From contig JACRPF010000020.1 of NCBI GenBank assembly GCA_016214035.1, positions 68,800 to 132,799 on the forward strand: DNA of 64,000 nucleotides, in the 5' to 3' direction. The translations under genes and the position numbers were made by a program. Source of the stretch: Spirochaetota bacterium. GTDB taxonomy: Bacteria; Spirochaetota; Brachyspiria; Brachyspirales; JACRPF01. The stretch's first letter is position 1, and each line of letters begins with the position of its first letter. Below the pieces are notes generated by a model that saw nothing but the letters and a program-made list of their open reading frames with translations, was not told where the DNA came from and did not search any database. Positions 7,409-55,517 of this stretch are shown here, one piece after another.

Positions 7409-7437
7409 TTGACGCATGCCGTTGATGCGGGTATACT
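7409..7437 (+). promoter_or_regulatory. Sigma70-type promoter TTGACG-N17-TATACT
   Basis: -35 at 7409-7414, exact 17-nt spacer, -10 at 7432-7437. The track start codon at 7416 lies inside this promoter. Confidence 0.55.
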
Positions 7438-7493
7438 TACAACATAACTCTGCTGCATCACGATACTACCTCTTTGCCAAGGAAACACTATTT

Positions 7494-10400
7494 ATGATCA
7501 CCGCATGTCATCGCATCCTGCTCGCCATCTTTATGACTTCCGGTCTTTTCGCCCAATCAGGCAATCTGATAATCAACGGCGATTTCGAGACCGTTGAGAA
7601 CGACGCTCCCGCGGGATGGATAATAGCTCCCTACGGTTCAAAGAATACTGTTCTCACGTCGGCGGCGGAAGGTGACATCCGCGGCAAGGCATCCGCTCAT
7701 CTCAAGCATGAACGTGCGTCTGCGGAGACGGGAACCAAAGCCATTGTGCTGATAACCAAGGCAAAAGTGAACGGCATCATCGCAGGAACGGAATATCGCT
7801 TCCGCTTTGCCGCACGCGCCCCGGTGAAGGACCAGCAGCTTCGCGTCTATTATTACACCGACACTTCCATATCTCCGCATTACTATAAGATGAAAACCAT
7901 TACCGTAAGCGATGCGTGGGACGAATACGAGTTTGTCCTGAAACTTCCGCTCGCCGAGGACTGGAAAGACCGTGCGCTCTTCATGCGCTTTGACATCCCG
8001 TACGGCGAAGTATATCTTGACGACGTTGTTCTTGCGCCGAATACCGATGCTCCGGCAACGGAGAAAAAGTCCGCGTACGCCTCGCTCAATCGAAGGAACC
8101 TTTTTCAGAACTCGAGCTTTGAAATCGGCTTTGAGGAATATGCGCTCACCCGCGGGCTCTATATGCGGGGACGCGACGCGAACAACAACGAACCGCGCCA
8201 ACCGGTACTCGACACCGCAGAGAAAATGCACGGCAATGCGAGCCTCAGACTTGATAATCCCGACGGTGACGCCATGCTGTTCAGTTCACGCGATATCCAC
8301 ATCACTCCCGGCAAAGAGTATACGCTTTCCGGCTGGTTTAAAACCGACGGCGGCATCAAGGTAGTATCGCTTTCGATACTGAGCATCATATCGAGCGGTG
8401 CGCGGAAAAATGCAACCACCTGGTCCGAGGTCGGCGGTGAATGGAAACGCATGTCGGTGACATTCACCGCGGCGCCGAATCATGAATATTACACACTGCA
8501 GATAGGCAATATCGCCGAGGGCTATGGCAAGCAGCCGCCGCCGACACGGAATCAGGCGGGAACGATGTGGATTGACGGCATACAGCTCACCGAAGGAAAA
8601 TCGTCGAAATATGAACCCGATGATTTCGAAATAGGACTCGCGCTCACGACCAATCGCTATTACGCGTATACGCCGGATGAACCGTATATGGTGTCGTTCA
8701 GGGCGCTCAACAATACGTCCTCCGACACGGAAGTAAAATTCCGATATACGATCGAGGACTGCTATTTCAATAAAACAGTACGTACGGGCGAGACGGCGGT
8801 GATGACGCTTGCGGGAAACTCCACCGGCACCATCGCCGCGGAGATAAATCCGAAACGCTACGGATTGTTCGTCTTGAACTACGAACTTGTCAATGCAAAG
8901 ACCGGCGTCGTGCTCGATGCATACTCGTTCGATTACGCCGTCATCGGCAATATCATGGCTGCACCGGCACCGAAAGGATTCACGACCGGCGGGCAGATGA
9001 ACTTCCGCGCCAACTGGTTCGCGCAGAGCTGGGCTACGCAGCCCACACTCGTCTACTACGGCGCCACCATCGACGAAACATATGACTTCATCGCGAACGT
9101 AGGCGATCGCTGGTTCCGCTGCTGGGATTTCGGCTGGGGACACAACGAGGTGAACGAAGGAAATTATGAATGGCAGGTACTCGACCGGCAGATAGAAGAA
9201 CTCACCAAACGCGGCATGAGGATAGTGGCGTCGTTCGACACGCTCATCGTCGACGAGAAAAATCCGCAGTCGATATATGCGCATGTGCCGAAATGGGCGC
9301 AGGAACGTTACGGCGTCACCGACACCAAAGGAACGATGAAATGCCGCGTAAGCGTTCCGCCGGTTGAGATATGGGCGCGGTACTTCACGGAATGCGTGAA
9401 ACGCTACAAAGGGAAAGTGCGCGCATACGAGATATTCAATGAACCGAATCTCTGGCTTTCGCCGGAACTCTACACGCAATATCTGAAAACCGCGTGCAGT
9501 ATTGTCCGGGCGAACGACCCCGACGCCAAGGTCATCGGCTTCTGCGCCACGGGCGACCTCGGCGGCAATCTCCTCAAGTTCGTGAAGGAATGCATGAACC
9601 TCGGCGCGAACGACTATTTCGACGCGATGTCGTTTCACCCCTACGACTCGCGCCTTGACTCGAGCAGCTATCCGGCGGAGAAGGCCATCGCCGGGATCAA
9701 ACAGCTGCTCACCGACGTGGGTGCCGGCAAAAAAGACATCTGGAATTCCGAGCTTTTCTATCTTGAGGACGACCTGCCGGAATATTTCTACGGTTCGCAT
9801 GACGTCAAAGGACATCAATTCGCGCGCAGGCTTCTCATCGACCAGTTCCACGGAGTCGCACGTTCGGCGTGTCTTGACGGCGGCTACAACCGCGCACGCA
9901 TCGCTCCGCTTGCACTCGACCTGCCGCGCAAACCCATACCGAGCCGTTTCTATGTCATCAATAATGCATGGGCGCGCTTCTTCGAAGGCGGCAAACCGGC
10001 AAAACAGGTAAGCCTTACCGGAAAAAACAAGCTCTACATCTATGACCGACCGGACGGACCGGTTGCCGCATATTGGAACTACAGTTATGCGAAAAAAAGC
10101 ACGGCGGTTCTTGCCCTCAGGAATGCAAAAGAAAAAATAATTCTGTTCGACCTTATGGGCAACCCGCTTGAAAAACCGGTACTGAAAGATAACGGATATT
10201 TGCTCACTGAAAGCGCCGACCCGGTATACATCAGACCGAACGGTATCAGCCGGGATGAATTCCTGAAACTGATGGACAGCGCCGAAATGGAATATCAGGT
10301 ACCCGTGTCGATAACCGCGCGCATGGCATACAGGGAAGATAAACCCGTCATCGCCGCCGAACTCATGAACTATGCGGCCGAGGTCACGCCGGTGCGTCTC

Positions 10401-11234
10401 AGTTTCAAAGCATCGTCCGATGCGGTTTCCGCGTCCCCCGTTACCGTACAGGCAAAACCGCGGGATGCAACACCCGTCGTCTTTCCGCTGCAGTTCGATA
10501 AGCCGTGGACAGCAACGGAATTATCATTCAACGCCGAGGCGGGTACGAAACAATACGATCTTGCACCGGTATCAGTGCGGTATCGTCCGTTTGTTACCGC
10601 ATCGCGCGTTGAGAAAGCGCCGGTGATAGACGGTATAGTGAAATCGGATGAATGGAACACACGCGACCGCATTACCCTCGACTCGCTTGCTAATCTCAGA
10701 AACGCCGTACCCGCTGTCTGGGGAGGCGCAAACGACATGTCCGGCCGTGTTATGCTCAGCTGGGACAACAATGCGCTTTATCTCGGCTTCAAAGTGCTTG
10801 ACGACAAACGCGGCGAGCGCAATGACAGGCTCGGCGTGTGGAACAGCGACTGCATCGAGCTTTTCATCGACACCGCGGCTGACGATGCGCCAACGGCCAC
10901 CGGCTTCAATTCCCGCTGCTGTCAGTTGGTTATCGGCATGCCGACGGTAAAATTCCCGGAAGTCGTCATGTTCAAAGCGAGCGGTATGCTCGAAATGAAC
11001 ACGGCGAATCTGGCCGTTAAAACATCCGTGCAGCCGGGCGGCTATGATGTTGAACTGGCAATACCGTGGAAAGAACTCGGCGGCATTACACCTGCAGCGG
11101 GTATGCAGCTCGGGTTTGACGTATGCCTGAGCGACAATGACGCAACGGCGCGGAAACTGTCACTCGTCTGGTCGGGTGCCGATGATTATTACCGGAATCG
11201 ATTGAACTTCGGCAGGGTGCTGCTGTCGCGGTGA
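7494..11234 (+). CDS. Secreted multidomain glycoside hydrolase (N-terminal CBM4/9-like, clan GH-A TIM barrel, C-terminal CBM9-like)
   Basis: Start moved to ATG 7494, preceded by AAGGAA, giving signal peptide MITACHRILLAIFMTSGLFAQ. Catalytic-type motif YEIFNEPNLW. C-terminal DGIVKSDEW..WDNNALYLGFKVLDD..DCIELFID..GFDVCLSDND looks CBM9-like. Confidence 0.8.
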   Translation: MITACHRILLAIFMTSGLFAQSGNLIINGDFETVENDAPAGWIIAPYGSKNTVLTSAAEGDIRGKASAHLKHERASAETGTKAIVLITKAKVNGIIAGTEYRFRFAARAPVKDQQLRVYYYTDTSISPHYYKMKTITVSDAWDEYEFVLKLPLAEDWKDRALFMRFDIPYGEVYLDDVVLAPNTDAPATEKKSAYASLNRRNLFQNSSFEIGFEEYALTRGLYMRGRDANNNEPRQPVLDTAEKMHGNASLRLDNPDGDAMLFSSRDIHITPGKEYTLSGWFKTDGGIKVVSLSILSIISSGARKNATTWSEVGGEWKRMSVTFTAAPNHEYYTLQIGNIAEGYGKQPPPTRNQAGTMWIDGIQLTEGKSSKYEPDDFEIGLALTTNRYYAYTPDEPYMVSFRALNNTSSDTEVKFRYTIEDCYFNKTVRTGETAVMTLAGNSTGTIAAEINPKRYGLFVLNYELVNAKTGVVLDAYSFDYAVIGNIMAAPAPKGFTTGGQMNFRANWFAQSWATQPTLVYYGATIDETYDFIANVGDRWFRCWDFGWGHNEVNEGNYEWQVLDRQIEELTKRGMRIVASFDTLIVDEKNPQSIYAHVPKWAQERYGVTDTKGTMKCRVSVPPVEIWARYFTECVKRYKGKVRAYEIFNEPNLWLSPELYTQYLKTACSIVRANDPDAKVIGFCATGDLGGNLLKFVKECMNLGANDYFDAMSFHPYDSRLDSSSYPAEKAIAGIKQLLTDVGAGKKDIWNSELFYLEDDLPEYFYGSHDVKGHQFARRLLIDQFHGVARSACLDGGYNRARIAPLALDLPRKPIPSRFYVINNAWARFFEGGKPAKQVSLTGKNKLYIYDRPDGPVAAYWNYSYAKKSTAVLALRNAKEKIILFDLMGNPLEKPVLKDNGYLLTESADPVYIRPNGISRDEFLKLMDSAEMEYQVPVSITARMAYREDKPVIAAELMNYAAEVTPVRLSFKASSDAVSASPVTVQAKPRDATPVVFPLQFDKPWTATELSFNAEAGTKQYDLAPVSVRYRPFVTASRVEKAPVIDGIVKSDEWNTRDRITLDSLANLRNAVPAVWGGANDMSGRVMLSWDNNALYLGFKVLDDKRGERNDRLGVWNSDCIELFIDTAADDAPTATGFNSRCCQLVIGMPTVKFPEVVMFKASGMLEMNTANLAVKTSVQPGGYDVELAIPWKELGGITPAAGMQLGFDVCLSDNDATARKLSLVWSGADDYYRNRLNFGRVLLSR

Positions 11235-11573
11235 GATGTAGCGCGTTATTTTGCTGCGTTATCTCTATTGCTGCATGTTCCGGACGTTTTTCCGCATGCA
11301 GAAGTTTAATTTCTGCATACGACGGAATTGTTTCTGCACTCACCGCAGCACGTTCTGAGTGCGGCAGACTTGTTTCCAGGGACAGAATACGGAGCGATGA
11401 ACTCATCGGACGGGGTTCCGCATATCGCGGCTTTTCCGCCGCACTCACCGGACATCCCAGTGCATTCAGATGATGGTCCGCGGACCTTGGAAACAGGCCC
11501 GATACATCCGGATTAGTATCCGCTGTATGCGGCATGTATTCCGGCACCTGCAGAATATCAAGTCCGGGTGCAG

Positions 11574-11862
11574 CACAACGGCGTTTGAGCGATTATGAAC
11601 AACAACAGATTTTCTCTACTACCACTCATTTTTCCAACGCGCGATTGGCGAAGGGGAGAAATATCTTTCTGAGCACCGAGCATGTCGATTATCAAATCAA
11701 AAATATATAGCAAATAAAATCAACCCAATACTGCATCCGAGCGGCACGATGCCGCGAATGCGACGAATCTGTCCAAGGAAGGACAGCTGAGTCGCGCACG
11801 GTGCGAAGAAAGATATTTCTCCCCGAAACAAATAGCGCGTGCCTCCGGCCCGCGCCCCGCCG
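11574..11862 (+). repeat. Structured intergenic element, copy 1 (candidate ncRNA or structured repeat family)
   Basis: Aligns over its whole length with the reverse complement of 49790-50075. Perfect 18-bp helix 11653-11670 / 11807-11824, inner hairpins 11741-11755 and 11769-11786, helix 11760-11764 / 11791-11795. Strand assignment is tentative. Confidence 0.8.
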
Positions 11863-11863
11863 C

Positions 11864-12658
11864 TCACTTCTTCACATTATGCAGCAGATACCCCGCCGCC
11901 GTTCCATGATAAATGACGATATCCGCCATCCCGGTATATCCCTCGACAATTGGCACCGTATTCGAAACGATGCCGAGATTCACCGCATACGTCATCTCGC
12001 CGTTCGACTCGATCACCGATGATATCTCCTCCACCACCGCGGGGATAATCCCGTAGGTCTGGTAGGAAAAATTATCGAGCTTGACCGATGCCCGGCCGCC
12101 GATACTCACGTCCGGACGCGCGCGCTGGGTTATCTTCGACTTGAACATGAACTGTGCGCTGTCGGCATAGAGCATGACAACGCTACCCGTGTCCACGCTG
12201 TCGTGGAGCTTCACATACGTGCCGATGACCTTCCCGGCGAACGGCGCGGCATATGTCTTCTGCGTGATAGTCCCCGAGAGTGAGATGATGTCCTGCATGG
12301 TCTGCTCGTAATCGCGGCGAAGCGTGTAGAGCCGCTGCGGCGAACCGTACGGCGTATCTTCTTTCCGTATCTCGGCCTCGATGAGCGTTTTTGCTTTGAC
12401 GGCATGTTCAAGCCGTTTTTTCTCCGGCTCGGAATCCAGGGCGATGACGGTGTCTCCCGCCTTCACGAACTGGTTCGTCGCGATATACGATACGGTGCCT
12501 GCGAGCGGAAAACGGACTTTTATCATCTGCCGCTGCTCGATGCGTCCGGGTGCAGGGACCGAGAAATCGATGCGCACCGTGAGCGCGGTGATGATGATGA
12601 CCAGAAAAAGTCCGCCGAGTATGCTCAGAAACAGTGCCGCAATGCGTATGAGCTTCAT
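11864..12658 (-). CDS. HlyD-family membrane-fusion / secretion adaptor protein
   Basis: N-terminal TM helix, barrel-sandwich and coiled-coil style sequence. Its ATG overlaps the upstream ABC gene stop (ATGA at 12655-12658). Confidence 0.8.
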   Translation of the reverse strand: MKLIRIAALFLSILGGLFLVIIITALTVRIDFSVPAPGRIEQRQMIKVRFPLAGTVSYIATNQFVKAGDTVIALDSEPEKKRLEHAVKAKTLIEAEIRKEDTPYGSPQRLYTLRRDYEQTMQDIISLSGTITQKTYAAPFAGKVIGTYVKLHDSVDTGSVVMLYADSAQFMFKSKITQRARPDVSIGGRASVKLDNFSYQTYGIIPAVVEEISSVIESNGEMTYAVNLGIVSNTVPIVEGYTGMADIVIYHGTAAGYLLHNVKK

Positions 12659-14619
12659 GATACCACCTTCGCTTCCGCCGCCTGCTTATCGCCGTCATCC
12701 CAGCGGAGCACCGTGGGCGTAGTCTTTTTCATCTGCGTCATGTAGAGCTTGTGATAGCGTCCTTTGCGCTGCAGCAGTTTGCGGTGTGTCCCTTCCTCGA
12801 CCTTTAAGCCTTTGTCTATCACCACGATATTGTCAGCGTCCATCACCGTAGAGAGTCGGTGCGCGATGACGATGATAGTACGGCCCACGAATATCTTTTT
12901 CATCGCATCCTGGATGAGTTCCTCGCTTTCCGAGTCGAGATTGCTCGTCGCTTCGTCGAGTATGAGAAGTTCGGGGTCGGTGAGTATCGCGCGTGCGAGT
13001 GCGAGCCGCTGACGCTGACCGCCGGAGAGCTTCACGCCGCGTTCGCCGATAACCGTCTCGTATTTCTTCTCGAGCGAATCGACGAACTCGTGGCAGTGCG
13101 CCGTCTTAGCCGCGGCGATGACCTCTTCAAGCGTTGCATCCGGTTTTCCGTAGGCGATATTGTCGATGACCGTCCCGTCGAAGAGGAACGTATCCTGCAG
13201 CACGAGACTTGAAAGCCCCCGGTAGTCGCCGAGTTTGCAGCTGCGTATATCCTCGCCGTCGATGAGAATGCGCCCGCCGGTGACGTCGTAAAACCGCATC
13301 ACGAGATTCGTTATCGTGCTCTTGCCGGCGCCGCTCGGGCCCACGAGCGCGGTGATGCTGCCGCGGGGTATGGTGAGATCGAAACCGGATATCGCCTTTG
13401 TCCCGTTGGGATAAGCGAACTCCACCTTGTCGAACACGATGTCCCTCGTTATGCCGTTAACACTCTTCGCATCCGACGCGTCTTTGATGGTGAGCGGTTC
13501 GTCGAGAAGTTCGAACACATGCTCCACGCAGGCGAGCGACACCTGCATCTCGGCGAACGATGACATTATCATGAATATCGGCTGGAAGAGCCAGTCGATG
13601 AATGAGATGAACACCACGAGTCCGCCGATGGACATTTTGTTGGTGATGACATGGTAGCCGCCGTAGAGATAGACCGCCACGAGGAGACACCAGTACATAA
13701 CCCAGATGACGCGATGCACCACCATGCTGATGCTCATGCCGTGGAGATATTTCCGGTAGATGAATTGATTGTCAACGACGAAATTGAACGACTCCGAGCG
13801 TTCACGACGGAACGCGCGCACCACCTGAATGCCTGAGAATGTCTCCGAAAGCCGCGCGGTAAGCGTTGACACTTCCTCGCGGAGCTTCTTGTGAAAGCGC
13901 CGCATGGTGTTGAAGATAAAATACGCGGCGATGACGACGACTGCCGCGAATGCGAGACACACGAGCGTGAGACGCCAGTTGAGGAAGAAAAGCGATCCCA
14001 GCCCCACCGTGAGCATCAGTATCGCGCGGAACGGACTGAACAGCCCCATCTGGAGGAGCGCCGACATGCGCTCGGCGTCGTTCTGCAGGCGCGAGATGAT
14101 GCCGCCCACTTTCAGTTCCTGCACTTTTTCGAGCGGCATCACCTGCAGATGCTGCATCATCTTTCGTTTTATGTTCGTCACGATGGTGCCGAGGAACGTG
14201 TTGATGATGTAGTCCTGCAGGAAGTTGAGCGACACGTTGGAAACGCCCACGCAGAGAAGCACGACGCAGAACGCCACGAGCACGCCGAAGTCGCGAGATG
14301 AGAGTATGTTGTCGATGATGAACTTTCCCGACCACGGCATCACCGCCTGCAGAAGCGTGTTCACGAGTATCATCACAAGTATGAACGCGATGCGTGAACG
14401 GCGCATCTTCAGTTCCGCGAAGTAACGCATGAGCGTTGCTTTTATCGGCTTTTTGGGTTTATCCTTATTTTTATCATCAGCGGCCGCATCAGGTTTTCCC
14501 TTGTCTGCCGGCGGTACTTCTTTTTTTTCGTCCTCGGGGCCGTCCTTGTCACCGAAGAGACCCTTCTCTTTGATGAATGTGCGATAGCGCTTACGGCTTC
14601 CTTCTTTCTCTTTCGGCAT
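12655..14619 (-). CDS. ABC exporter, fused permease/ATPase (MsbA-like) with a Lys-rich ~70-aa N-terminal extension
   Basis: Six-TM ABC membrane domain, Walker A GPSGAGKST, signature LSGGQRQR, Walker B LLILDEATS. Confidence 0.9.
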   Translation of the reverse strand: MPKEKEGSRKRYRTFIKEKGLFGDKDGPEDEKKEVPPADKGKPDAAADDKNKDKPKKPIKATLMRYFAELKMRRSRIAFILVMILVNTLLQAVMPWSGKFIIDNILSSRDFGVLVAFCVVLLCVGVSNVSLNFLQDYIINTFLGTIVTNIKRKMMQHLQVMPLEKVQELKVGGIISRLQNDAERMSALLQMGLFSPFRAILMLTVGLGSLFFLNWRLTLVCLAFAAVVVIAAYFIFNTMRRFHKKLREEVSTLTARLSETFSGIQVVRAFRRERSESFNFVVDNQFIYRKYLHGMSISMVVHRVIWVMYWCLLVAVYLYGGYHVITNKMSIGGLVVFISFIDWLFQPIFMIMSSFAEMQVSLACVEHVFELLDEPLTIKDASDAKSVNGITRDIVFDKVEFAYPNGTKAISGFDLTIPRGSITALVGPSGAGKSTITNLVMRFYDVTGGRILIDGEDIRSCKLGDYRGLSSLVLQDTFLFDGTVIDNIAYGKPDATLEEVIAAAKTAHCHEFVDSLEKKYETVIGERGVKLSGGQRQRLALARAILTDPELLILDEATSNLDSESEELIQDAMKKIFVGRTIIVIAHRLSTVMDADNIVVIDKGLKVEEGTHRKLLQRKGRYHKLYMTQMKKTTPTVLRWDDGDKQAAEAKVVS

Positions 14620-19388: not shown

Positions 19389-21680
19389 ATGAGCAGCGAA
19401 GTCATCAATCACTATTTTTTACAGCCCGAAGCCATCCCCGACGCACTTGAAAAGACCGTCTTTCACGCATATCCCGACGAGCCCATCCGCGTCTACGCAT
19501 TCTGCGATCTGAACGAAAAACTCTCGTTCGCCTCATCGTGGCTGGTCCTTACCGCCGGGCACCTCATCCATGCAAAACCCGATGCGTCAGGCGCCTGGAT
19601 ACTGAGCGCGCATGCGGTGAAAGACATCAACACGTTTGATTATCTCGACGGCATATCGTCAAGCCGCCTCGTCATCGTCGGAAAGAAAAAGGAGCTGATG
19701 CTTGCGGTTCATTTCACGCGCAGGCAGAGCCGCGCGGTGGGCAACTTTCAGTTCGTCGCCGAACAGTCGGTGAAGCGGCTTTCGAAAAAAGTGAAAGAAA
19801 AGGCGCTGGCCGACGATTTCGACCCCGGCGCCGAATACCGCGAGGCGATGCTCAACGCTGTGGAAAACTCAAAAGCGTCGCTCTCGATACCGAAGGCCGG
19901 CGTCATGCTGCGGCTGCTCTCGTATCTCAAACCGCACCGCAAGGCGGTGACACTCGGCTTCATATTCGCGTTTCTGTTAACCGCACTCCAGCTCATACCG
20001 CCCTACCTCACCCGGGTGCTCGTCGACGATATCGTACGACCGCTTGAAAAAGGATCCAATCCGAACGCATGGAAGATGCTCTGGACGGTGATCATCGCGC
20101 TCGCGTCCATATGGGCATCAAGCGAGTTCATTTCGTTCCTGAGACTCCGTATCATGTCTATCACCGGCGAGAAGATCGCCATGAACCTCCGCGATACGCT
20201 CTATGCGCATATGCAGAAACTGAGCCTCGCGTTCTTCACCTCGCGCTCAACCGGTTCGCTCATCACCCGCGTAAGCTCGGATACGGACCGCCTGTGGGAC
20301 TTCATCACCTTCGGTCTCATCGACATCGTCGTGTCGGTGCTGCAGATCATCGGTGTGGCCGTGGCGCTTTTCCTGCAGGACTGGCGTCTTGCCGTACTCG
20401 TTATCATCCCGCTTCCCATTATGACGCTCATGTTCTACTTTCACAGTAAAAAGATTCAGGTGTTCTTCCTCCGCATCTGGCGCAAATGGTCGGCGATGAC
20501 CGCGGTGCTTTCCGACGTCATCCCCGGCGTGCGCGTGGTCAAGGCGTTTGCGCAGGAAAAACGCGAGGTGGACCGCTTCCATAAACGGAGCCTCGCCGTT
20601 GAACAGGAAGCGGAAGTACTTCACAAAGAATGGACGCGCTTCTGGCCGTCGGTGGTGATGCTCATGCATACCTGCTCGCTCATCGTCTGGGTGGTGGGGG
20701 CTCCCCGCGTCATGCAGTACATGCTCACACACGGCAAGGAAGGTATGCCGCTCGGGGTTTTCATCGCGTTCACCGGATACATGTGGATGTTCTGGGCTCC
20801 CGTACAGCATCTGGGCATGATGAGCAGAACCGTCAACCGTGTCACCACATCGGCGTCGCGTATCTTCGAAGTGCTCGACACGGTTCCCACGGTGGTCAGC
20901 AAGCCCGATGCGAAGACGATATCGCGCATCAAGGGACGCGTGGCATTCGACGACGTTTCGTTCACGTACGACGGCGTGCGCAATACGCTCAAAGGCGTCA
21001 CGTTCGATGTACGGCCCGGCGAGATGATAGGCCTCGTGGGGCCGTCGGGCGGCGGGAAGACAACACTCGTGAACCTCATCTGCCGTTTCTATGACGTGAA
21101 GGACGGCTCTGTGCGCGTGGACAACCGCGACGTCCGCGATCTTGAACTTACCGCACTCCGCCGTCAGATAGGCGTGGTGCTCCAGGAACCGTATCTGTTC
21201 CACGGCACCATCGCCGAGAATATCGCCTACGGATCAAAGGGTGTATCACTGAAGGATATACTCGCCGCGGCGAAGGCTGCAAACGCGCACGAGTTCATCT
21301 GCGGATTCGCCGACGGTTACGAGACCATGGTGGGCGAACGCGGGCAGACGCTCTCCGGCGGCGAACGCCAGCGCATATCGATAGCACGCGCGATACTTCA
21401 TAATCCGCGCATTCTCATCCTCGATGAAGCGACGAGTTCGGTGGATACGGAAACGGAGAAGCGCATACAGGAGGCGTTGCACCGGCTCGTGGAAGGACGC
21501 ACCACATTCGCCATCGCGCACCGTTTGTCGACGCTTTCCAGCGCCAACCGGCTGTTCGTCATGGAGGACGGCAAGCTTGCCGAACATGGAACGCATAAAG
21601 AACTTTTGAAAAAGAAAAACGGCATCTATGCCAAGCTTCATAAAACACAGGCGCAGCTGCATGCGGCGATAGCAGTATAA
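19389..21680 (+). CDS. ABC exporter, fused permease/ATPase with a ~170-aa soluble N-terminal domain
   Basis: Walker A GPSGGGKTT, LSGGERQR, ILILDEATS. The N-terminal 170 aa have no TM segments. Confidence 0.9.
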   Translation: MSSEVINHYFLQPEAIPDALEKTVFHAYPDEPIRVYAFCDLNEKLSFASSWLVLTAGHLIHAKPDASGAWILSAHAVKDINTFDYLDGISSSRLVIVGKKKELMLAVHFTRRQSRAVGNFQFVAEQSVKRLSKKVKEKALADDFDPGAEYREAMLNAVENSKASLSIPKAGVMLRLLSYLKPHRKAVTLGFIFAFLLTALQLIPPYLTRVLVDDIVRPLEKGSNPNAWKMLWTVIIALASIWASSEFISFLRLRIMSITGEKIAMNLRDTLYAHMQKLSLAFFTSRSTGSLITRVSSDTDRLWDFITFGLIDIVVSVLQIIGVAVALFLQDWRLAVLVIIPLPIMTLMFYFHSKKIQVFFLRIWRKWSAMTAVLSDVIPGVRVVKAFAQEKREVDRFHKRSLAVEQEAEVLHKEWTRFWPSVVMLMHTCSLIVWVVGAPRVMQYMLTHGKEGMPLGVFIAFTGYMWMFWAPVQHLGMMSRTVNRVTTSASRIFEVLDTVPTVVSKPDAKTISRIKGRVAFDDVSFTYDGVRNTLKGVTFDVRPGEMIGLVGPSGGGKTTLVNLICRFYDVKDGSVRVDNRDVRDLELTALRRQIGVVLQEPYLFHGTIAENIAYGSKGVSLKDILAAAKAANAHEFICGFADGYETMVGERGQTLSGGERQRISIARAILHNPRILILDEATSSVDTETEKRIQEALHRLVEGRTTFAIAHRLSTLSSANRLFVMEDGKLAEHGTHKELLKKKNGIYAKLHKTQAQLHAAIAV

Positions 21681-45880: not shown

Positions 45881-45954
45881 CGCACCCGGCAGGGGTCGAA
45901 CCTGCAACCTCAGGCTTCGGAGGCCTGCGCTCTATCCAGTTGAGCTACGGGTGC
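45881..45954 (-). tRNA. tRNA-Arg (anticodon CCG)
   Basis: Folded by hand: acceptor GCACCCG/CGGGUGC, D stem GCUC/GAGC, anticodon stem CAGGC/GCCUG with loop CUCCGAA, T stem GCAGG/CCUGC with loop UUCGACC, discriminator G. CCA is not encoded. Confidence 0.9.
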
Positions 45955-48320: not shown

Positions 48321-49727
48321 TCATTCCAGCGGCAGTATACTGTCGATAAGTACAACGGCAAACTGGTGCTCGTGATCCGGGAATTTCGGTTTGTATTTCT
48401 GCGGGTCGTCGGCGAAGCGTCCCTTATCCCATTCCGCGGCGATGAGCTTCTTGGTCTCGCGCAGCAGCGTATTGAACGCAGCCTTCCCGGCTCCGTCTGA
48501 AGACTTATTGAGCACATGATAACCGCTCACAAGATACGCGCACTTTGCGGCGAGCAGCATTGCCTCGTAGATATCCGCATTCTTTTTCGGCTGATACCAT
48601 GACGCGATATCGAGAAGCTCCTTCGCGTTGGAGAATACCGCCGCAAGCGCTTTCACATCGTCCTTGCCGGTAAGCGGCTTGTTATCGACCGCGCCTTTCG
48701 CCGCACGATGATCGATGACGAGTGACGGATAAAGTATCAGAACTGTCGCGAGCGTGTCGTTGAGATCGCTTCCGAATACCGTTTCCGCGAACCGCGCGTG
48801 GAATTTTTTATCGTTTATCTTTCCTTTCCCCTTGTATACCTCGGCGCTGTACGCAATGCCGTAATACAATGCCGATTGAATATACCGGAACGGGCACCAT
48901 ATCGTTGTGATGAGACCGAGCGCATTGTGTTTGAACGCGAACGACGCCATCTTCTGTGTATTCTCAAGCGCGATGTCGTTCGGCAGAAAGCGGTACTCCC
49001 AGCAGGCTATCGACGGAGCCGTGATTATTTTTTTAAACCCGGCGCCCGCAAGTTTCGCGTGAACGTCGTCTTTCACCGTGCGATGATAGCGCCAATCGAT
49101 GAGTATAACATCCTTTCTGATAAGCTTTGCGATCTTTTTATCTTTTGTCGGGTGATCCGCCCACATCATCGGCGTTTTCTTCGCACCTTTCACCATGCCG
49201 ATAATCGTATTCACATACTCCGCCCATGTTGCCGATTCATCAAGCCCGCTGTTCGCTTTGCAATACTCCTTCAGATCGACTTCGTCACATCCTATATGAA
49301 GAAAGTCGCTTGAAAAGACCTTCGCCGTGGCGGCGATAAGCTTTTTCATCACCGCTAATGTCTCTTTGTTCTTCGGATCGACGGCATTGAACGTAAGCTC
49401 TTTCGTCTTCTTTCCCGCATACAGATGTTTGTATTCCTTGCGGTCGGTGAGATAGCGCGTATGCCCGAATGTCTCAAGTTCCGGGATGATATCTATCTTC
49501 TTTTTCGCCGCATAGGCGACAAGCGCTTTCATGTCCTTCGCGGTGAACGCATGCGGTTCGGCGACGGTCTCAAACCCGGGAAGCGCCACGGACATTCCGG
49601 TATCGTCGGTAAAATGCCAGAGGAGCGTGTTCATCCCCCACTCCGCCATGAAATCGATGAGGCGCCGGTAGTAATCGTGCTGCTCGATAATCCGTGTGCA
49701 GTCTATCATGATGCCGTTGATACGCAT
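48321..49727 (-). CDS. GH20-like beta-N-acetylhexosaminidase
   Basis: MRINGIMIDCTR..LLWHFTDD..ETFGHTRY..HIGCDEVD. Start moved to ATG 49727, preceded by AAGGA 8 nt upstream, because the track ATG at 49760 overlaps the -10 box. Confidence 0.85.
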   Translation of the reverse strand: MRINGIMIDCTRIIEQHDYYRRLIDFMAEWGMNTLLWHFTDDTGMSVALPGFETVAEPHAFTAKDMKALVAYAAKKKIDIIPELETFGHTRYLTDRKEYKHLYAGKKTKELTFNAVDPKNKETLAVMKKLIAATAKVFSSDFLHIGCDEVDLKEYCKANSGLDESATWAEYVNTIIGMVKGAKKTPMMWADHPTKDKKIAKLIRKDVILIDWRYHRTVKDDVHAKLAGAGFKKIITAPSIACWEYRFLPNDIALENTQKMASFAFKHNALGLITTIWCPFRYIQSALYYGIAYSAEVYKGKGKINDKKFHARFAETVFGSDLNDTLATVLILYPSLVIDHRAAKGAVDNKPLTGKDDVKALAAVFSNAKELLDIASWYQPKKNADIYEAMLLAAKCAYLVSGYHVLNKSSDGAGKAAFNTLLRETKKLIAAEWDKGRFADDPQKYKPKFPDHEHQFAVVLIDSILPLE

Positions 49728-49786: not shown

Positions 49787-49789
49787 TCG

Positions 49790-50075
49790 GCGACGCCGGA
49801 GGCGGAGGACGCGCGTTATTGCTGGGGAAAAATGTATTTCCTTGCGCCGCGCGCGACTCAGCCGTCCGTCCGTGGACGGATTCGTCGCATACGCGCCATC
49901 GTGGCGCTGTCTATTACAATTAGAATTATCTGGATGTTATATCACCATGAATTGTTGCATTTAATGCGCGGCGCGAGGAAACACATTTTTCCCTTCGCAT
50001 ATCACGCGGTGAAAAAATGAATAGTGATAGTGGTAAAAGATGTAGTTGCTATACAAACGCTCGAACGCCGTTGTG
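49790..50075 (-). repeat. Structured intergenic element, copy 2 (candidate ncRNA or structured repeat family)
   Basis: The reverse complement aligns with 11574-11862. Long helix arms at 49977-49993 and 49824-49841 plus a 9-bp GC extension. Hairpins at 49893-49907 and 49862-49879. Strand assignment is tentative. Confidence 0.8.
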
Positions 50076-50477
50076 TTTCGGGATGTGCGGGATGATGTTA
50101 TTTCGCCGCACATCATTACATAAAGTATACTACAGCTTTTGCAGCATCTGATTATACAGGATTACATACGCCGCCTGTACGAACTGCACAACATTCATTT
50201 CCTTCCCGCTTAGACAGGCTCAGCACTAGTTTTGGACTTACGAGCGGATCACTTGCCATATCTTTAGTATCATACCTGCCAATTCTTTCCGCACTTGCGC
50301 TTCACATCGGTGGCGGCTCTGACGCTCGTGCGTTTACCTTCGGCTTTCTTCAAATCCTATCTTGCAGTGCACACCCTTGCCGTTTAGCCAATGTTCTCCT
50401 TACCGAATTCATTTGAGACTTTGGTCGGTGAGCTTGCCGGACCATCACGTGTAAGTGAATGCGCCCTTGTCGGTCGC

Positions 50478-50521
50478 ACCAAATAGTAAGGACTGATGGC
50501 GACCAATATCGCCATCAGTCC
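50478..50521 (-). terminator. Likely terminator of the che-like operon
   Basis: Perfect 13-bp stem GGACUGAUGGCGA / UCGCCAUCAGUCC (50490-50521) with a 6-nt loop, followed in sense by UUACUAUUUGG. Lies about 80 nt after the cheW stop. Confidence 0.5.
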
Positions 50522-55330: not shown

Positions 55331-55517
55331 ATACTCCTCCTTTTTTACTAGTTATTCTCAAATCGTACATTTACACTAATTACTGTCGCTCTCGCGGTGC
55401 ATCCTGCACCGCTTGCGCTAGCGTAGCGCGGGTGCTCACAACACTGTGCGCATCCATGCGCGGGTCCATTCGTGAATACTAATGTTCTTTTCTTATTCGT
55501 CATATAATAGTCCCGCG

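Follow-up and report, generated by a model that had tools for sequence, protein, structure and literature searches.

A repeated, structured non-coding element of about 290 nucleotides in an uncultured groundwater spirochaete: candidate genes for a lineage-specific RNA

The genome of an uncultured groundwater spirochaete (Spirochaetota bacterium, GenBank assembly GCA_016214035.1) contains, on contig JACRPF010000020.1, a repeated non-coding unit of ~290 nucleotides (nt) that is present as two diverged copies in opposite orientation; the stretch analyzed, positions 68,800 to 132,799 of the contig (64,000 nt), is hereafter termed the window. The two copies have a common nested fold that is under selection, their conservation is mosaic, and they carry no coding signal. 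A first-pass annotation of the window had proposed a structured element in two copies, and both are present where it placed them, with all pairs of the fold kept and eight of them changed in a compensatory manner on both sides. We tentatively interpret the copies as paralogues that each encode, as a gene or a transcribed module, a structured non-coding RNA of ~290 nt specific to this lineage, the transcription of which we infer.

Two diverged copies of one unit

Copy 1, read on the plus strand, and the reverse complement of copy 2 are 84% identical over ~295 aligned columns, and each copy is recovered with the profile of the other at an nhmmer E-value of ~1e-95. A repeat search of the window returned a single long inverted pair (11740-11824 / 49824-49908). 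Homology between the copies starts at most 4 nt from a conserved box, CACAACGGCGUUYGAGCG, and ends at a common CGCCG, which gives the following limits for the whole unit, from the 5' box to the 3' strand of the outermost helix, P1:

11574-11862, plus strand: copy 1 (alignment and coordinate map; minimum free energy against shuffles, z = -5.9)
49788-50075, minus strand: copy 2 (alignment and coordinate map; minimum free energy against shuffles, z = -5.6)

A hidden Markov model (HMM) built from the two copies matches these two places only in the window, and a covariance model of the core (model R1), which was run with its filters off for the window and with default filters for loci of this genome and of its relatives, finds the two copies in the window and no third. 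GC skew is negative in nearly all 4-kb bins of 1-64000, with one bin at about zero, and there is no origin or terminus between the copies.

Consensus fold

With copy 1 taken on the plus strand and copy 2 on the minus strand, the consensus fold comprises 57 pairs, arranged as three nested helices (P1, P2 and P3) and two hairpins (A and B). Its parts, in 5' to 3' order and with copy 2 on the minus strand throughout, are:

50058-50075 (copy 2), 11574-11591 (copy 1): 5' box CACAACGGCGUUCGAGCG, 17 of 18 positions identical between the copies
50009-50057 (copy 2), 11592-11637 (copy 1): G-depleted arm, predicted to be single-stranded, unpaired in the consensus fold
50003-50008 pairing with 49815-49810 (copy 2), 11638-11643 pairing with 11836-11841 (copy 1): P2, 6 bp, with 5' strand CGCGUG
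49966-49993 (copy 2), 11654-11681 (copy 1): P3 5' arm, forming 25 consensus pairs (copy 2: with 49852-49825)
49908-49965, 58 nt (copy 2), 11682-11740, 59 nt (copy 1): AU-rich variable linker inside P3, before hairpin A
49893-49907 (copy 2), 11741-11755 (copy 1): hairpin A, GCGCCA-CGA-UGGCGC, with a 6-bp stem and the loop CGA
49853-49888 (copy 2), 11760-11795 (copy 1): hairpin B, GCGAC-GAAUC-N-GUCC-AMGGAM-GGAC-N-GCUGA-GUCGC
49825-49852 (copy 2), 11796-11823 (copy 1): P3 3' arm
49793-49809 (copy 2): 3' tail containing the motif CCUCCG twice; in copy 1 the motif occurs once, at 11842-11847

P1 (5 bp) and P2 (6 bp) enclose a large internal loop, one side of which is the G-poor single strand of 46-49 nt and the other the short CCUCCG tail. 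P3 (25-27 bp) closes a three-way junction with the AU-rich linker and hairpins A and B. P1 is formed by the CGGCG of the 5' box (copy 2, 50070-50066) and the terminal CGCCG (49792-49788 in copy 2; 11858-11862 in copy 1); it is invariant between the copies, so that covariation speaks neither for nor against it. Each copy has one G-U pair in P2, at differing positions, with G-C at that place in the other copy.

The unpaired segments are conserved to different degrees. The G-depleted arm is 65% identical between the copies, with an alignment far above those of shuffles; it has 1-3 G per 40 nt in both copies and contains the conserved motifs CAACNACA and UCAUUUUUYCA. The CCUCCG motif of the tail, unpaired in the consensus fold, is kept within a segment that is otherwise 47% identical. 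Hairpin B is the best conserved block of the element; its symmetric internal loop could form tandem G-A pairs, and its hexaloop is AAGGAA in copy 1 and ACGGAC in copy 2. Outside the unit, a 9-bp hairpin (50084-50116, minus strand; GATGTGCGG, a 15-nt loop, CCGCACATC) ends 8 nt upstream of the copy 2 box, and its counterpart at copy 1 is a weak one of 5 bp at ~11544-11571.

Evidence for selection on the structure

All statements on covariation made here refer to one pairwise comparison (n = 2 sequences). Within it, every one of the 114 pair cells (57 pairs in two copies) is a standard pair. Eight pairs are changed on both sides, including 5 of the 25 consensus pairs of P3, in which none is broken, and one pair each in hairpin A (G-C to C-G), hairpin B and a weak 3-bp hairpin; two further pairs, both in P2, show one-sided changes to or from G-U. 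These values were reached in 2 of 500 shuffles, and when the 3' partners were instead slid by 1-3 columns, pairing fell to 28-53%, with 0-1 double changes.

Conservation is also distributed unevenly along the element. The 5' box (17/18, 94%), hairpin B (32/36, 89%) and hairpin A (13/15, 87%) are nearly identical in the two copies, and the arms of P3 are 71-75% identical with all changes compensated. The linker retains 26 of 59 positions, and its alignment score is not above that of shuffles in either orientation. If the linker, which sits at the random level, reports the level of neutral divergence, the base pairing and several of the unpaired motifs are, as judged from this alignment, under purifying selection. 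The mosaic pattern is unlike the uniform neutral decay of a recent insertion.

Strand preference

Three G-U pairs bear on the strand from which the element is read, one in copy 1 (11639/11840) and two in copy 2 (50004/49814 and, in P3 at alignment columns 99/246, 49982/49836); on the opposite strand all three become A-C mismatches. The energy of the consensus fold is -88.8 kcal/mol on the favoured strand versus -79.2 kcal/mol on the reverse, and the reverse-strand consensus has six double changes, a shifted register in P2 and two unpaired columns in P3. The energies of the single sequences do not discriminate between the strands. One observation points the other way, namely a C-A mismatch in the P3 internal loop of copy 2, which would be G-U on the other strand; copy 1 has a tandem G-A loop at the equivalent position. 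On the favoured strand each copy follows a co-oriented gene, which for copy 1 encodes a protein with carbohydrate-binding modules (CBMs) and for copy 2 is cheW, together with its terminator.

These observations weakly suggest plus-strand reading for copy 1 and minus-strand reading for copy 2. The first-pass annotation had made the same guess from a single G-T pair in the long helix of copy 2; that pair is real (49982/49836), and there are now three wobbles in place of one, together with the better consensus energy, although the preference is still weak.

Coding potential

The possibility that the element encodes a small protein had been raised at first pass for the two short open reading frames (ORFs) at 11629..11558 (23 amino acids) and 50017..50151 (44 amino acids); other frames were considered here as well. 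Both ORFs exist as they were written, the two copies each retain an ATG in a GAAAAAATGA context, and one antisense frame is open through the conserved core of both. The conserved ATG, however, is simply what UCAU, a conserved part of the G-poor arm, gives on the complementary strand, no Shine-Dalgarno sequence was seen upstream of it by direct reading of the sequence, and the two short peptides have in common only the six residues that the box encodes. Stops occur in all six frames within the aligned region of the two copies, and the codon differences between them are mostly non-synonymous (45-52, versus 7-17 synonymous).

Ten ORFs, nine that overlap the copies and one that lies upstream of copy 1 (11086-11547), were looked up exactly among ~15 billion proteins, and no called gene corresponds to any of them. 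A query made of the concatenated six-frame translation found no protein relatives, in a design that is insensitive because a long composite query dilutes the word filter. With no conserved frame, stops in all six and an excess of non-synonymous differences, we reject the short-ORF proposal, and a protein-coding role in any frame can hardly be right; the compensatory changes in the stems are a better account of the conservation.

Genomic context of the two copies

Four features adjoin the copies or place them among their neighbours:

7416-11234: gene for a CBM protein of 1272 amino acids
49786-49781 (TTGACG) and 49764-49759 (TATAAT), minus strand: promoter-like site of the GH20 gene with a 16-nt spacer, matching at 11 of 12 positions; it abuts the element and is not part of it
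50522-50489, minus strand: terminator of the che operon, with a 15-bp stem
50479 to ~50090, minus strand: 5' fragment of a truncated, class-C-like group II intron, adjoining the 5' end of copy 2 but outside the repeated unit, with an uncertain 3' limit

The 5' box of copy 1 (11574) lies 340 nt past the stop of the 1272-amino acid gene, and the P1 3' strand of that copy ends (11862) 1-2 nt from the stop (11864-11866) of a convergent HlyD-like gene. At copy 2 the last helix strand is 1 nt from the -35 hexamer of the GH20 promoter, and the che terminator lies upstream; these contexts agree with those given at first pass. The GH20 gene product matches Pfam PF00728, and its NCBI call is a 468-amino acid form, the start of which would be at 49727. 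The interval between the CBM gene and copy 1 (11235-11573) has a degenerate 42-nt periodicity (~11269-11450) and several short inverted repeats; it has no Rfam and no plasmid match, and its minus-strand ORF, 11086-11547, has no Pfam match.

The association of the element with glycoside hydrolases noted at first pass is not upheld in relatives. In the supposed large hydrolase Pfam recognizes only CBM9 and CBM4_9 and no catalytic domain; among 5.8 billion proteins the 1272-amino acid protein has three matches, namely itself and two orthologues, which come from a Hainich groundwater metagenome and from Logan run SRR22746112 (also SRR22746128). The association amounts to two cases in one genome, and in the nearest sampled relatives the element accompanies the orthologue of neither gene. 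Because these orthologous genes lack it, the element is not a leader or trailer conserved with either of the two glycan genes.

No sigma-70 promoter or intrinsic terminator is conserved with the unit on either strand. Inspection by eye of both strands, inside and just upstream of the unit, revealed no conserved promoter, and the one hit within the unit of a scan for intrinsic terminators is hairpin A of copy 2, which was flagged on the plus strand, has a weak T-tail and is without an equivalent in copy 1. There is no U-tract after any conserved helix.

These features bear on whether the element acts in cis at operon ends, as a barrier to read-through, a Rho-loading site or a stabilizing structure that would insulate the ABC/HlyD operon and the GH20 promoter from transcription arriving from upstream. 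Both copies are downstream of a co-oriented unit and shortly ahead of either the end of a convergent gene or the promoter that comes next, and the G-poor, C-containing, unstructured stretch of 46-49 nt, which resembles a rut site in composition, is followed by massive secondary structure. We nevertheless regard such a role as unlikely; a conserved, covarying architecture of ~290 nt goes beyond the normal needs of terminators and rut sites, a strong terminator hairpin already serves the che operon ~400 nt upstream, and the conserved helices are not followed by a U-tract.

A group II intron remnant upstream of copy 2

The ~400 nt between the che terminator and copy 2, left unexplained at first pass, are now explained by the 5' fragment of a group II intron. 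Immediately after the hairpin and T-tail of the terminator comes GUGCGACC (GUGCG), at 50479. Further along, 50405-50328 matches by blastn (77%, E 6e-5) domain I of ltrA-encoding group II introns from enterobacterial plasmids, and 50371-50278 gives a sub-threshold match to Rfam group-II-D1D4-3 (E 0.11). One of the matched plasmid introns likewise lies right after a terminator, with ltrA and full Rfam matches, and class C introns are described as typically located downstream of terminator motifs (PMC1702495).

Domain V/VI (RF00029) is absent from the window at gathering score and from the element at E-values up to 10, whereas a positive control intron (L073) matches RF00029 at 49.6 bits, as well as D1D4-1 and D1D4-3. 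No Pfam reverse transcriptase domain is present in the scanned ORFs of the window. Because the window contains neither a reverse transcriptase nor domain V/VI, the segment from 50479 to ~50090 is, by these matches, a 3'-truncated intron remnant, and it marks the site as one visited by mobile DNA.

It is conceivable, at a very low probability, that copy 2 and the 390 nt upstream of it are together one ORF-less group II intron, with the element as its 3' part or a domain IV insert and copy 1 as a remnant. The GUGCG start right after a terminator hairpin is at the usual class C site (PMC1702495), and with its domain I likeness the 390-nt segment resembles class IIC introns. Fragment and element together span ~690 nt, which is about the size of an ORF-less intron. 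The repeated element differs from such introns in having no intron domain; neither domain V/VI nor a reverse transcriptase accompanies it, while the control intron is matched by RF00029. There is no homology between the sequences that precede the two copies, nothing intron-like lies upstream of copy 1, and the element shows no similarity to the control intron. Since copy 1 has no intron neighbour and the element is unlike the control intron, the intron is a neighbour of copy 2 and not part of the repeated unit.

Search for relatives and further copies

With the 4227 covariance models of Rfam 15, the whole window at gathering score yields only a tRNA, and the two copies, searched at E-values up to 10, give nothing or noise (MIR918, E 5.7; M23, E 9.6). 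Exact-pattern scans of viral contigs for hairpin B, the box and the hairpin A/B combination returned chance matches only, as checked with nhmmer and by eye, and a scan of the GTDB species genomes returned nine chance matches, all within coding sequence. The JGI metagenomes contain no match to the strict or the loops-only pattern, and blastn against plasmids and phages gave no match to the element. A further 14 kb of the same organism, from identical Logan contigs of run SRR12113407, has no copy, giving two copies in 78 kb in total.

The nearest sampled relatives are distant, with GH20 orthologues of 66% and 62% identity and orthologues of the CBM protein of 77% and 64%. At the orthologous loci in these relatives the intergenic regions are 72-118 nt long and the neighbours are different, and neither the HMM nor the covariance model finds the element there. 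By these comparisons, the element belongs to no described RNA family or mobile element.

Other features of the window

The sole Rfam match at gathering score is:

45881-45954, minus strand: tRNA gene (68.5 bits)

Two other repeats are present. A 39-nt direct repeat of 79% identity (1159-1197 and 55424-55462), both members of which contain ATGGATGCGC on the minus strand, lies in one case at the start of ORF 692-1192 and in the other upstream of a STAS-domain ORF, and could represent paralogous gene starts. An 80-nt inverted repeat of 75% identity (12983-13062 / 21318-21397) lies within two ABC exporter genes (12655-14619, minus strand; 19389-21680, plus strand) and looks like coding paralogy rather than a non-coding repeat.

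Discussion

Our results are consistent with the two copies being paralogous genes or transcribed modules for a structured RNA, which we hold to be a plausible reading, albeit one that falls somewhat short of probable. In such an RNA, hairpins A and B, and in particular hairpin B with its tandem G-A loop and GGA-containing hexaloop, may be a protein-binding site or the core of a tertiary structure, while the exposed G-poor arm and the CCUCCG tail could be pairing surfaces for other RNAs, for example in Shine-Dalgarno regions. No conserved promoter or intrinsic terminator comes with the unit; the RNA would probably be made by read-through or processing of upstream co-oriented transcripts, and P3 is long enough to be a substrate for RNase III. 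Duplex predictions (duplexfold) against 41 start regions gave only long, loop-ridden artefacts and no target.

In its size of a few hundred nucleotides, its intergenic location, its compensated nested helices, its conserved unpaired motifs and its non-coding character, the element is similar to the large or orphan structured bacterial RNAs that comparative genomics has brought to light and that Rfam curates (such as raiA, ROOL, OLE and HEARO). It differs from them in having no Rfam match and no conserved gene partner and in being represented by two copies in one metagenome-assembled genome. As with base-pairing small RNAs of the RsaE/RoxS type, which have C-rich anti-Shine-Dalgarno seeds, there is a conserved CCUCC-containing motif that is predicted to be unpaired next to a G-poor single strand; unlike them, the element is three times larger, has neither a promoter nor a terminator of its own, and yielded no targets.

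Several points weigh against an RNA gene. The comparison is limited to two sequences from a single metagenome-assembled genome, and no promoter or terminator is conserved with the unit. There are no relatives in the searched collections, and none beside the orthologous genes, so that any long-term conservation across species is hypothetical. The strand preference consists of three wobble pairs, an agreement expected in ~1 in 8 cases by chance without any preference. Moreover, the homology ends abruptly, as it would for an inserted segment of DNA, a long, near-perfect helix is equally typical of inverted-repeat mobile DNA, and hairpins of folded single-stranded DNA would yield an identical covariation signal.

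Some of these points also fit a second explanation, that the element is a non-autonomous mobile or selfish repeat, either similar to a miniature inverted-repeat transposable element (MITE) or a remnant of an insertion sequence or retroelement. Its hairpins would then be kept by an enzyme that recognizes folded single-stranded DNA or RNA, the copies would derive from different sub-lineages, and the linker would be dispensable cargo. We consider this, the main rival to an RNA gene, rather unlikely but a serious candidate. The homology has sharp ends; the two intergenic contexts are unrelated, with the copies in opposite orientation; and the element is absent near the orthologous genes in relatives. 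Both copies are squeezed against a neighbouring signal, with a stop codon 1-2 nt away from copy 1 and a -35 box 1 nt away from copy 2, and a further mobile remnant, the group II intron fragment, abuts copy 2. There is also a long inverted repeat around an AT-rich core, and no promoter or terminator travels with the unit. An intergenic location, a long imperfect inverted repeat, an AT-rich interior, a position at gene ends in either orientation and the lack of a gene of its own are features that the element has in common with MITEs and with repeats of the ERIC, Correia and RUP types.

Against mobility, the only inverted repeat at the ends is the 5-bp P1; the 28-bp inverted repeat lies inside the unit, and beyond it the conserved sequence continues for 80 nt on one side and 40 nt on the other. 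Inspection of the flanks revealed no target-site duplication or shared direct repeat, with no empty site to fix the exact boundaries, and the 78 kb covered hold just two copies; as far as these flanks and this stretch show, the element differs in all of these respects from the repeats named above. Pfam searches of 42 long ORFs of the window detected no transposase, reverse transcriptase or integrase, and the called genes in the additional 14 kb likewise include none. The opposite orientation of the copies within one replichore argues weakly against strand-specific transposition of single strands, as in the IS200/IS605 type. The mosaic divergence and the full compensation of the stems, which also set the element apart from the repeats named above, require continued selection rather than decay following insertion. 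A 38-kb composite bounded by the inverted copies is unlikely because housekeeping genes lie within it (flagellar rod, DAHP synthase, lysA-like, a tRNA and dprA).

A more specialized proposal is that of a new kind of scaffolded RNA, either programmable and guide-like or cargo-carrying, in which the hairpin A/B handle would present an exchangeable segment of fixed length (~58 nt) on a long processing stem of the RNase III type, possibly with co-mobilization by retroelements such as the neighbouring group II intron. We leave it standing, as a distinctly improbable one, because the linkers are unrelated in sequence yet 59 and 58 nt long, while their surroundings are 75-90% conserved. No match to the linkers beyond chance turned up within the window, among phage records or among viral contigs, no partner protein was identified, and no nuclease, recombinase or effector gene is adjacent.

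Membership of several described classes was considered and rejected. For a retron msr-msd, the downstream genes are GH20 and the convergent HlyD-like gene, and the scanned ORFs of the window contain no reverse transcriptase domain. For a sponge of the CsrB/RsmZ type, unpaired GGA occurs only in the hexaloop of hairpin B. A riboswitch leader is ruled out because copy 1 has no downstream gene on its own strand. Membership of the 6S RNAs and a role as a processing stalk were likewise rejected.

At present the element is an orphan with two copies, both from one metagenome-assembled genome, and its wider importance would depend on further copies or transcripts. If it is mobile DNA, it would be an unusual repeat, in which the conserved inverted repeat is internal rather than terminal. 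If, as we tentatively favour, it is transcribed, it would represent an undescribed family of large structured RNA in an uncultivated lineage of groundwater spirochaetes, and its well-defined architecture, in which three helices are nested, one hairpin can form tandem G-A pairs and a CCUCC motif is exposed, may be useful as a starting point for finding its partners.

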